Shown here: one piece after another, positions 6,001-8,315 of the stretch
Layout of the letters: every line of letters begins with the position of its first letter
How positions within the stretch are numbered: position 1 is the first letter of the stretch
Source of the DNA: a virus
Lineage: Duplodnaviria; Heunggongvirae; Uroviricota; Caudoviricetes
Virus record (IMG/VR): IMGVR_UViG_3300045988_169852
Location: 1 to 8,315 of that record
Reading direction: 5' to 3' (one strand)
Length of the DNA: 8,315 nucleotides
Program-made: the position numbers

Positions 6001-8315
6001 AATCATGATTATAATCATAACTGGATGAACATCCAGTTATGATTTTTTAAGTCAAAGAGGAATTTCTTACTATGGCTGAAGAGAAAAAAGGCGGTATTTC
6101 GGTGTACATAAGCCCCGACATCGTGAAGGCGCTCAAGGAACGCCACCAGCAGAACGTAAAAGCAGGCATTGCGGCAGGACTTGATCCGCTGGCGATGGTT
6201 GAGCCGTCAACAGGCTGGCAGGTACGCGCCTATTTACGCGCGGCGCTGGGTATGAATCAGGTTCACGGGGGTGAATAATGACAGTAAAAGCAATAGCACT
6301 TAACACTAACCAGCTTTTTGCGTACCTGAATCGCGAGGATATTGCGGAATTTAAATTCAGTCCGCTGTTTACCGCGCTGTTTTTCCCGAACGTGGCGACA
6401 TTCAACACACAGGACATCATGTTAGATAACCTGGATATTGAAGAAGTCACTATGTCGGCGTTTTGTTCGCCTATGGTGGGTAGCCAGGTTCAGCGCGATA
6501 AAGGGTACGAAACAAGCATTATTCGCCCTGGCTACATGAAGCCAAAACACGAAATCGATCCATTAAAAACAATAATGCGCATGGCTGGAGAAGATCCAGC
6601 ACAGCTTAACGACCCTACCTACCGCCGTATGCGCCTGATTACTGGCAACATGCGCCGCCAGATAAACGCCATTAAAGCGCGCGTGGAATGGCTGGCGGTA
6701 AATGCGGTAACGACCGGAAAAAACATCATTGAGGGCGAAGGCATAGAGCGCTATGAAATCGACTGGAAGATACCGGAAAAAAACATCATAGAGCAGGCCG
6801 ACGGTAAAAAATGGTCAGAGCAGGACAAAGACATACACGACCCAATCTATGACATTGAGCTATACGCAGATCAGGCAGGTTGCCCCGCAAACGTCATGAT
6901 TATGGGCGTTGATGTATGGCGCATGTTACGCAGCTTTAAAAAATTCCGTGAACTGTACGATCTCTCCCGTGGTTCAGAATCCGCCGCAGAGCTGGCATGT
7001 AAAAACCTGGGCGAAGTGGTGAGCTTTAAAGGCTATCTTGGTGATCTGGCCCTTATCGTCTATTCCGGCAAATACACTGACAGCGACGGCACAGAAAAAT
7101 ATTTCCTTGAGCCTGATTTGCTGGTCCTGGGCAACACCAACAATAAAGGGCTGGTGGCCTATGGTGCGATTATGGAACAGGAAGCGGTAAGAACGGGCGC
7201 AACGCAAAACATGTTTTACCCGAAAAACTGGATTGAGGACGGCGATCCGGCGATTGAGTACGTGCAGACGCACAGCGCACCGCAGCCGGTTCCGGCAGAT
7301 ATTCGCAAATTTGTTACCGTCAAAATTGGTTAACGGGGGGATTCTATGGACACTCCATACATTGAGTTATTTGCAGGCAGTCAGCAGGTATCCACGACGC
7401 TGGTACATTTTGCCGCTGATGCTGGCGTTATTCAGGAATTTACCCCGCTGATGCTGGCGGACAATGGCGAGTTTAAGCCGTGGGATGGTCAGGAATCTGG
7501 CAAGGCTGTTTATCTGACTTCGTATCCTGTGGACACGTCAAAGCAGAAATCAGCACAGTGTTACAAGACGGGGATATTTAATATCGCCGCCGTAAACTGG
7601 CCTGAGAGCGCCGACACTGACGCGAAAAAATGCGCCGCCTTTGCGGGTTCTGGCGTATCCGTTCAGCCGCTGGCGCGATAAGCAGGGGAAACGATGGCAA
7701 CGAATGAAAGCATCATGGCGCTACCGCTGGCGAGTAAATTTAAAGCAGAAGCGCGGGCAATGGCTGACAGAGGTTTATCAACCTACGAGGCCGTATATCA
7801 ACTCAACAAACTGGAAGAGCAGGACAAGCCGCGCGCTGATGCGATTATGGCGCTTCATGAGCATAAAGACTATCAGCCGCTGTTACGTGCAATGGCAAAC
7901 GTGCCATGTATTAGCGTCGATAATGCTCGTGAAATCCTGAACATGACCATAGAGCAGGAGCGCCCAAAGGTTGCACCAGAGCTTACCGCAGCCTTTGAAA
8001 ACTTTATGGACATGCACAGCCCGCAAGCCGTATCAGCTGGCATGGCATACGATGGCAGAAACCAGGGCGATGACGGCGACATCGATCGCATACTGAAAAC
8101 CATCTGAGACAAGGCCGGAGAAATCCGGCTTTTTTTTACGGGTCCTTTCCGGCATATGGACCCGTTACGGGGCGGCGACCTCGCGGTTTTTCGCTATTTA
8201 TGAGCCTTTTCAGGGGGGTGGTGGTGGTTTTGTTGTTTGCTCTATCTTTATGAATAAAAAGGGAAAGATGCAAGCAATACACCAACCTGAAGCAGTAATT
8301 AAGTTGGTGTATTAA

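Follow-up and report, generated by a model that had tools for sequence, protein, structure and literature searches.

Introduction

EcCICFT073 is the prototype of the Gram-negative phage-inducible chromosomal islands (GN-PICIs), and helper induction with high-frequency transfer has been shown experimentally for this island only (PMC6092414). A capsid gene (c1499) and a decoration gene (c1500) were reported in it (Fillol-Salom 2018; PMC6092414), as restated in Dokland's 2019 review, and the supplement of the original paper lists c1498 and c1501 as encoding 68 and 137 aa. A capsid gene homologous to E of phage lambda was found in 21 of 29 reference GN-PICIs (Mageeney 2023; PMC10111431). Here we describe the homologous four-gene block of an element found in an 8,315-nucleotide stretch of viral DNA (positions 1 to 8,315 of IMG/VR record IMGVR_UViG_3300045988_169852, hereafter the window); its coat and decoration proteins are called E' and D'.

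The region is almost certainly the late ('morphogenesis-like') operon of a classical GN-PICI of the EcCICFT073 type. The four block proteins are 97, 95, 97 and 93% identical to c1498-c1501, and EcCICFT073 has the same four genes in the same order, with the same upstream regulatory region, terminator and cos1 as the window. It differs in encoding RppA (144 aa) downstream of cos, where relatives of the window element encode a full-length Nu1-like small terminase subunit (TerS, 180 aa), and in carrying a PerC gene between SSB and the module that is not in the window; the left 2 kb of the window, in addition, is mosaic. With its capsid gene and decoration gene on record since 2018, the present observation is a rediscovery, and the presence of a capsid-like gene block is already known. 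We propose that the block is a real but redundant shell-building set (scaffold, coat and cement), non-essential in the laboratory and of conditional advantage, a statement which, taken as a whole, we regard as evenly balanced between right and wrong.

Coat, cement and scaffold-like proteins of the late operon

The block consists of the following genes.

6072-6278, + strand: 68-aa protein, c1498 homologue (97% identical), translationally coupled to E' (phrog_3255, 2.2e-36)
6278-7333, + strand: E', satellite major capsid protein (351 aa), c1499 homologue of the lambda gpE family (Pfam, PHROG, BLASTP and PDB matches)
7346-7681, + strand: D', satellite head decoration (cement) protein (111 aa), c1500 homologue of the lambda gpD family (Pfam, PHROG and PDB matches)
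7694-8107, + strand: free-standing Nu3-type scaffolding-domain protein (137 aa), c1501 homologue, with two copies of a repeat of ~35 aa and a C-terminal FENFMDMHSPQAV motif

An earlier note on this DNA, made from the sequence alone, had recognized an operon of four genes from 6072 onward with gpE and gpD homologues at 6278-7333 and 7346-7681, arranged E then D, the reverse of lambda. The four open reading frames (ORFs) were recovered at just these coordinates and both homologies were confirmed. E' matched Pfam Phage_cap_E (PF03864) at 3.8e-49 (167.9 bits, cut-off 22.9) over positions 14-328 of 329 (315 covered) and phrog_29 at 3.5e-107; it is 43% identical to lambda gpE by BLASTP (8e-91), and the PDB entry of lambda gpE, 7VI9, was matched at 4e-81. 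PDB 3BQW ('putative capsid protein of prophage'), which has already been used as a molecular-replacement model, is 100% identical to c1499 and matched E' at 2.5e-229. The alignment with gpE (341 aa) spans almost the full length; this similarity in size would leave no room in E' for a built-in delta or scaffolding domain, so that a separate scaffold would be needed. D' matched Pfam HDPD (PF02924) at 1e-17 (64.7 bits, cut-off 29.1) and phrog_49 at 4.2e-27. With lambda gpD it shares 37% identity by BLASTP, PDB matches to gpD and SHP ranged from 6e-13 to 1e-9, and the N-terminal arm is its most diverged part relative to phage D. In NCBIfam, no match was found for any of the four block proteins.

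The 137-aa protein, which the earlier note had left as an unknown in an element said to have no scaffold, is by its profile matches a homologue of the Nu3-type scaffold domain, and a scaffold role is predicted for it. It matched phrog_1999 at 6.3e-65 and the C-terminal end of phrog_53 ('head maturation protease') at 1.2e-10. Residues 117-200 of lambda Nu3 matched the same phrog_1999 at 2.7e-26, and the last 151 aa of the S49 protease encoded by the icd prophage of CFT073 matched it over its full length at 2.5e-61. No phage protein is closer to the scaffold-like protein than this protease C-terminus (39% identity over 83 aa); when the family alignment of the 137-aa protein was compared with this C-terminus by hhalign, the probability was 96% (E 4e-9), with a common FExFMxxHSPxAV motif. 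The direct hhalign comparison with lambda Nu3 was weak (probability 5%), and for this reason it is the PHROG profile that ties the protein to lambda itself. A remote homology search with the 137-aa protein returned 9 proteins only; the scaffold link came from the PHROG profiles. The AlphaFold2 (AF2) model is all-helical and of low confidence (pLDDT 50), too uncertain for a fold search. Nu3 itself is reported to be intrinsically disordered. Several NCBI records name the 137-aa protein 'phage head-tail connector protein'; this name found no support in Pfam, NCBIfam or PHROG, the profiles leading instead to the Nu3-type scaffold domain.

Natural variants of 93 aa (P0027, P0029, P0031) lack exactly aa 21-64 (window 7754-7885), which is one of the two ~35-aa repeats, and look like the products of a deletion mediated by the repeats. 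In CFT073 the icd prophage (L003 12371-49001) is a complete lambdoid prophage ~10 kb from EcCICFT073, with its head module ~38 kb away; it is of the helper type named in PMC10111431.

The operon therefore resembles the C/Nu3-D-E region of lambda in its homologous coat and cement proteins, in its scaffold domain (via phrog_1999 and phrog_53), and in an identical cosN with a cosQ-like sequence nearby. It differs from lambda in that the order is permuted (E, D, scaffold), in that the scaffold is free-standing and not nested in a protease gene, and in the absence of a protease domain, portal, W, FI, FII and large terminase subunit (TerL); cosB also differs, and the satellite copies form a separate clade. 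As the earlier note had claimed, no portal or protease is present: neither these nor head-tail connectors or a large terminase were found in the window among ORFs and Pfam and PHROG matches, and the complete islands of the relatives L001, L002 and L005 contain no tail, lysis, portal, protease or large terminase genes. This separates the element from the capsid-forming PICIs (cf-PICIs) such as EcCIEDL933 (Alqurainy 2023, 10.1101/2022.09.08.507074). These share its int-alpA-rep backbone and a satellite-encoded coat; they have the complete gene complement for head formation and packaging (portal, protease, connectors, HNH, TerS and TerL) and make their own small capsids, whereas the window type has scaffold, coat, cement and TerS only. 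The portal, protease, connectors and large terminase that accompany the coat in cf-PICIs were found neither in the window nor in its complete relatives.

Lineage, selection and prevalence

By sequence comparison, E' and D' form a satellite-specific lineage, independent of helper coat genes. No coat protein more than 48% identical to E' was found among 50,697 phage records; all 396 matches to phage major capsid proteins (MCPs) were below 60% identity, the best being 48%. The relatives of E' at 67, 63, 63, 56, 54 and 51% identity all lie in satellites of the int-alpA-replicase-E-D type, from Salmonella, Edwardsiella, E. coli and Serratia. These contexts were obtained via contigs encoding relatives, and a scan of genome contigs with the MCP yielded no confirmed relatives. 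Identity matrices separated satellite from phage clades for both proteins: for E, 50-95% between satellites and 38-46% between satellites and the phage E proteins compared; for D, 43-98% and 25-40%, respectively. Where a satellite resides in a prophage, its E' is no closer to the E of that prophage (46% in L007, ~42% in L010) than to other phage E. The separate clades for E and D point to an old satellite lineage and not to a recent capture. E' and D' were always kept paired in the satellites examined, and E' and D' alone were universal there.

Selection was measured by dN/dS, the ratio of non-synonymous to synonymous substitution rates, according to Nei-Gojobori.

E': 0.12-0.17
D': 0.06-0.10 (among E. 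coli copies)
Scaffold-like gene: 0.16-0.34
68-aa gene: 0.2-0.3
SSB of the element (control): 0.14-0.24

Purifying selection thus acts on all four genes (0.06-0.34), D' being the most constrained gene of the module, and it is equally strong among chromosomally integrated copies (window, L001, L003). Of 5,426 complete E. coli genomes, 595 (about one in nine) cover at least 80% of the block. In a sample of 15 full-length matches, all 15 had its genes annotated under product names (major capsid protein, head decoration protein, hypothetical proteins), with ORFs intact. These results bear on the possibility that the block is a functionless remnant of captured phage late genes in the course of being lost, for which one could invoke its lack of a laboratory phenotype and the dynamic nature, with capture and loss, that the literature ascribes to the late zone of GN-PICIs. 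Such a remnant would not be expected to show low dN/dS across all four genes, intact ORFs in every sampled genome, and an E'/D' pair conserved over four genera at no more than 48% identity to any phage copy, and we consider this explanation very improbable indeed.

A second possibility stems from the helper-embedded PICIs such as 11capE (Mageeney 2023; PMC10111431). The window element shares their four-zone layout, and relatives of its module are embedded in prophage E and portal genes; it differs from them in that its closest relatives are integrated in the chromosome, at tqsA and in the cspD-clpS region. Related satellites were observed inside lambdoid prophages, in the portal gene in Edwardsiella (L007 1786-11394) and in the major capsid gene E in E. 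coli (L010 2919-12783), insertions that match the helper-embedded PICIs of PMC10111431. Since late genes of the helper (E, B, C, A) are where satellites of this integrase clade insert, the E and D that they carry could serve as a backup or dosage copy that offsets the interrupted or polar-silenced genes until excision, an idea put forward in PMC10111431. Both L007 and L010 carry E' and D', 201 similar elements are inserted into homologues of the capsid gene E of the helper, at the same site, and capsid genes are called the commonest late gene in GN-PICIs (PMC10111431). However, purifying selection is as strong in the chromosomally integrated copies, which weakens this reading; L007 interrupts a portal gene without bringing one of its own, the identity of E' to the interrupted helper's E is no higher than 42-46%, and the authors of PMC10111431 themselves note that redundancy is not essential. 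We judge a backup role unlikely.

A Salmonella satellite (L013 4292-11812, flanks 1-4167 and 15183-19963) was found in the tail/baseplate cluster of a P2-like prophage. It encodes a coat protein of the gpE type (51% identical) and a D-like gene, and no lambda cosN within one mismatch was found in L013. The P2 coat belongs to a different family.

Published tests of the prototype block and its possible functions

The block is dispensable in the laboratory for transfer and for interference with lambda, as shown by the published work on EcCICFT073. We propose that its function lies in shell building nevertheless. The satellite would keep exactly the high-copy shell set (scaffold, coat and cement) and dispense with the low-copy portal, protease, connectors and TerL. 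E' most likely forms real shells that expand and fill with DNA, with D' cementing E'. The cement protein of lambda, gpD, binds expanded shells only and matters only for DNA-filled shells; by this argument from gpD biology, the strongest constraint falling on D' suggests that E' shells mature and fill. For this, a portal, a protease and a terminase would be required, and they would be stolen from the lambdoid helper. The E, D and Nu3 proteins of the helper would do the same job, which would explain why knock-outs are silent, and the benefit would be conditional, depending for example on the helper type, on a limiting supply of helper coat, or on times at which the satellite lies within late genes of the helper. 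Taken alone, this shell-building mechanism is tentative, and we place it somewhat short of an even call. A further step, that E', D' and the Nu3-like scaffold are a self-contained shell system which, with some natural helpers, builds the satellite's own capsid on stolen portal, protease and terminase, possibly with a different T number or stability, and that laboratory helpers mask the effect, is doubtful, although worth entertaining.

Several observations weigh against a shell-building role, in addition to the weak direct alignment with Nu3. In EcCICFT073, deletion of c1499 or c1500 left transfer by the native CFT073 prophages unchanged, and lambda plaquing was not restored, interference being unchanged (PMC6092414). 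Islands carrying c1499::cat were transferred at 1e5-1e6 per ml. DNA packaged by lambda was all phage-sized, with no small species (PMC6092414). A synthetic island in which c1498-c1501 had been swapped for a Cas9 cassette was still packaged by phi80 delta-cos and delivered (PMC10530653). No published report of E' or D' in particles was found among the literature accessible in full text. The scaffold-like gene varies by lineage: a distant homologue is present in L011, it is absent from L006 and L007, and an AlpA-domain protein takes its position in L009, L012 and L013.

The AlpA-domain gene that follows D' in these three satellites (L009 11402-11746, L012 11403-11756, L013 11375-11812) encodes 114-145 aa and is 33-40% identical to the AlpA protein of the window. 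As to the markers used in the published assays, the idea that c1501::tetA and c1499::cat mean that the module was never assayed intact was discarded: primer arms place tetA just past the c1501 stop, so that c1498-c1501 are intact in the assays with that marker.

The earlier note had proposed that the satellite substitutes its own subunits into helper-built procapsids, in the manner of the Ccm protein encoded by pathogenicity islands of Staphylococcus aureus (SaPIs), or that it is a reduced capsid-forming PICI. Since a prototype 93-97% identical in its block proteins has already been tested experimentally, and given its silent knock-outs, phage-sized DNA and tolerance of the Cas9 replacement, the substitution mechanism is not supported for the helpers tested, and the same tests lend no support to the second proposal. 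The analogy of c1499 with Ccm had already been drawn (PMC6092414; PMC6893505). Ccm of SaPIbov5 is likewise a coat-protein homologue on a cos-packaged satellite; it yields small capsids and interference, whereas neither was found with lambda for c1499, which is 95% identical to E' (PMC6092414).

A related hypothesis is that of size redirection, in which E' and the scaffold-like protein direct small shells that fit the monomer of ~11-12 kb and exclude the helper genome, as do SaPIbov5 Ccm and SaPI1 CpmB. Coat and scaffold are the usual determinants of T number, which speaks for this hypothesis. The earlier note had named both flanking proteins as candidates for size determination; the 137-aa protein, being scaffold-like, is a reasonable choice, although not as the unknown it was labelled. 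CpmB reportedly shares a C-terminal motif with the scaffold of its helper, as a competing internal scaffold. The window satellite similarly has a scaffold-like protein that shares its C-terminal motif with a helper-type scaffold, which recalls the competing scaffolds of SaPI1 (Dearborn 2017, as cited in PMC6092414); it differs from SaPI1 in also bringing its own coat protein. PmCI172, which encodes an MCP homologue, forms small capsids (PMC6092414), and the published size test was run with lambda rather than with the native helper, lambda Nu3 being no more than a distant relative of the 137-aa protein. On the other hand, lambda packaged phage-sized DNA exclusively, deletion of c1499 or c1500 did not relieve interference, and replacement of the whole block was tolerated, as described above. 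In addition, the length of a cos island of this type must, as stated in PMC10530653, be an exact fraction of the helper genome of ~48 kb, which implies that multimers are packaged in full-size heads. Size redirection is thus quite improbable.

It was also considered that E', D' and the scaffold-like protein are anti-phage cargo, acting as decoys or poison subunits that disrupt capsid assembly in lambdoid competitors other than the helper. The block lies in what the authors of PMC10530653 call the 'adaptable module' (the c1498-c1501 region), and the interval between ori and cos is used for cargo (PMC10530653). PICIs carry defences that act by interfering with assembly, such as Tai (PMC11364771), and the scaffold-like protein resembles the domain by which helper-type proteases enter procapsids. 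However, when the post-ori genes were expressed singly, c1503 (RppA) was the only one that blocked lambda, none of the others reduced lambda plaquing, and results with phi80 were similar (PMC6739421). Moreover, a cement protein that co-evolves would be superfluous for a poison, yet of the four genes D' is the most constrained, and E' and D' are always retained as a pair. The conserved cement partner and the negative single-gene tests weaken the poisoning hypothesis, to which we attach little credence.

Regulatory sequences and the 68-aa gene

The operon is preceded and closed by the following sequences.

5840-5910, + strand: two successive terminator-like hairpins after SSB, AGCCGGAGCAATCCGGCT followed by a T-run and GCCCGATAAG...CTTATCGGGC followed by a T-run (read directly)
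5950-6071, + strand: near-invariant regulatory region upstream of the operon, with TATAAT, a palindrome, T6 and a ribosome-binding site (RBS), AAAGAGGA
8111-8132, + strand: intrinsic-terminator-like hairpin closing the four-gene operon (hairpin scan; conserved in L001-L005)

The genes are tightly packed. Read from the sequence, the stop codon of the 68-aa gene overlaps the start of E' (TAATG at 6276-6280), and the gaps between E' and D' and between D' and the 137-aa gene are 12 nt each, with Shine-Dalgarno-like purine runs. Terminator-like hairpins at 6013-6044 and 8111-8132 bracket the four genes. This arrangement agrees with the operon described in the earlier note. The late order is then small protein, E', D', Nu3-like scaffold, terminator, lambda-type cos and Nu1-like terS.

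The hairpins at 5840-5910 were read by eye and were not reported by the consensus hairpin scan; alignment showed that they are kept in L001, L002, L003 and L005. They would serve as insulation between the replication and the late module. In a stretch of about 130 bp upstream of the operon, identity is almost complete, even with L001 and its diverged flanks. A perfect -10 box (TATAAT, 6010-6015) is found there with a poor -35 box (TTGCAC, 5988-5993) at a spacing of 16 nt; these were assigned by eye, and the -35 box failed the criterion of the tool used. A palindrome with 13-bp arms at 6016-6043, TCATAACTGGATG-AA-CATCCAGTTATGA, followed by T6, forms the terminator-like hairpin that the scan reported at 6013-6044. 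These features suggest a candidate late promoter under the control of an activator or an operator. Q-mediated antitermination of the operon was looked for by comparing the upstream region with lambda PR'/qut and with the region downstream of the Q gene of the CFT073 helper; only chance 10-14-mers were found, and this candidate was rejected.

The 68-aa protein has homologues, 47-55% identical, upstream of E' in Salmonella and Edwardsiella satellites. Its AF2 model (pLDDT 76) has a beta-alpha-alpha fold; a search with this model in PDB and BFVD gave nothing significant (best E-values 4.2 and 1.2), so that a guess of a ribbon-helix-helix fold was unsupported, and Pfam matches at E up to 10 were of no use.

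The cos site and terS

Downstream of the terminator, the window ends with the following features.

8135-8314, + strand: lambda-type cos, with a cosQ-like TTTACGGGTCCTTTCCGG at 8135-8152, an exact cosN at 8170-8181, a right flank identical to lambda up to 8203, and then a divergent cosB-like region
8315, + strand: first base (A of ATG) of a Nu1-like terS of 180 aa; L005 and L001 match the window to 8315, where terS starts

The lambda-type cos adjoining the block, already indicated by the earlier note, was verified. With up to 2 mismatches allowed, a single cosN was found in the window, the exact GGGCGGCGACCT at 8170-8181. Its flanks are the same as those of lambda: towards cosQ the sequence is TTTACGGGTCCTTTCCGG, and to the right it is CGCGG.TTTTCGCTATTTATGA; the cosB side diverges further out. 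The E' and D' of L005 are 100% identical to those of the window, and TerS of the L005/L001 type (180 aa) aligns over its full length with lambda Nu1 at 34-35% identity. The earlier claim that the element has no terminase is thus correct for TerL, which is lacking in the window and in the complete relatives, and incorrect for the small subunit, whose gene starts at the very last base. PICIs in which TerS replaces Rpp have already been noted in published work.

In some relatives two exact, inverted cosN sites flank the rpp or terS gene (L001, 16734 and 17601; L002, 15253 and 15777; L003, 2559 and 3298), in agreement with cos1 and cos2 of PMC6092414. L005, the closest relative of the late region of the window, has one cosN only.

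The element and its relatives

The element is a phage satellite and not a phage fragment, as the earlier note had it: profile matches identify alpA, a DUF927 primase and SSB, in addition to the lambda cos, and its relatives form islands of ~10-12 kb with chromosomal genes at both flanks. The window is cut at either end, and island size and flanks were judged from the complete relatives L001 (~12 kb), L002 and L005 (~10-11 kb each). In these the order is integrase, AlpA, Icd-like, DUF4222, DUF927 primase, SSB, four-gene block, cos, small terminase-like gene and a 93-aa gene, the integrase lying directly upstream of alpA, and the same architecture was found in L001, L002, L003 and L005. In the window, the AlpA-family regulator (316-504; Pfam Phage_AlpA, 5e-18) lies near the left end and is co-oriented with the rest, and the primase/replicase (2645-4783) matched DUF927 at 3.3e-46 and phrog_1139 ('DNA primase') at 4.3e-188. 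The position of AlpA, an own primase, a small island free of tail and lysis genes, and a helper-type cos beside a TerS gene are those of a classical GN-PICI. None of the sid, psu and delta families of P4-like satellites was found among the Pfam and PHROG matches of the ten main ORFs, and cos is of the lambda type.

Parts of the window are found in thousands of E. coli chromosomes. It is a mosaic: the left 2 kb (1-2010) match islands of the RM10466 type and not N10 or SCU-172; in the remainder (2011-8315), the late region is essentially identical to N10. In CFT073, SCU-172 and N10, a PerC-family regulator gene separates SSB from the capsid block; it is absent from the window (5825-6071), and RM10466 likewise has no PerC. 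Two Rfam matches exceeded the gathering score, one to the C4 antisense RNA with 72.6 bits and one to the a1/b1 target of this RNA with 46.8 bits, at 1618-1667 and 1735-1822 (+ strand) of the window. This is an immunity RNA pair of the P1/P4 type in the zone between alpA and the replicase, mentioned for some GN-PICIs by Mageeney 2023.

Concluding remarks

As a discovery the present work is limited, since the genes were published in 2018, the coat is in the PDB and the block has already been used as a swap-out site for cargo. What is added is the scaffold homologue, the retention of exactly the shell-forming set, and the old, helper-independent lineage of the coat and cement genes; together these sharpen the question of transfer from a helper devoid of E, D or Nu3. 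A strongly conserved, satellite-specific set of coat, cement and scaffold genes is present in about one in nine complete E. coli genomes, and the coat-cement pair also in other enteric genera, yet no phenotype has been found for it. Classical PICIs steal whole capsids and cf-PICIs steal tails only; if the doubtful reading of a self-contained shell system is true, elements of the type described here would be a functional intermediate between the two.

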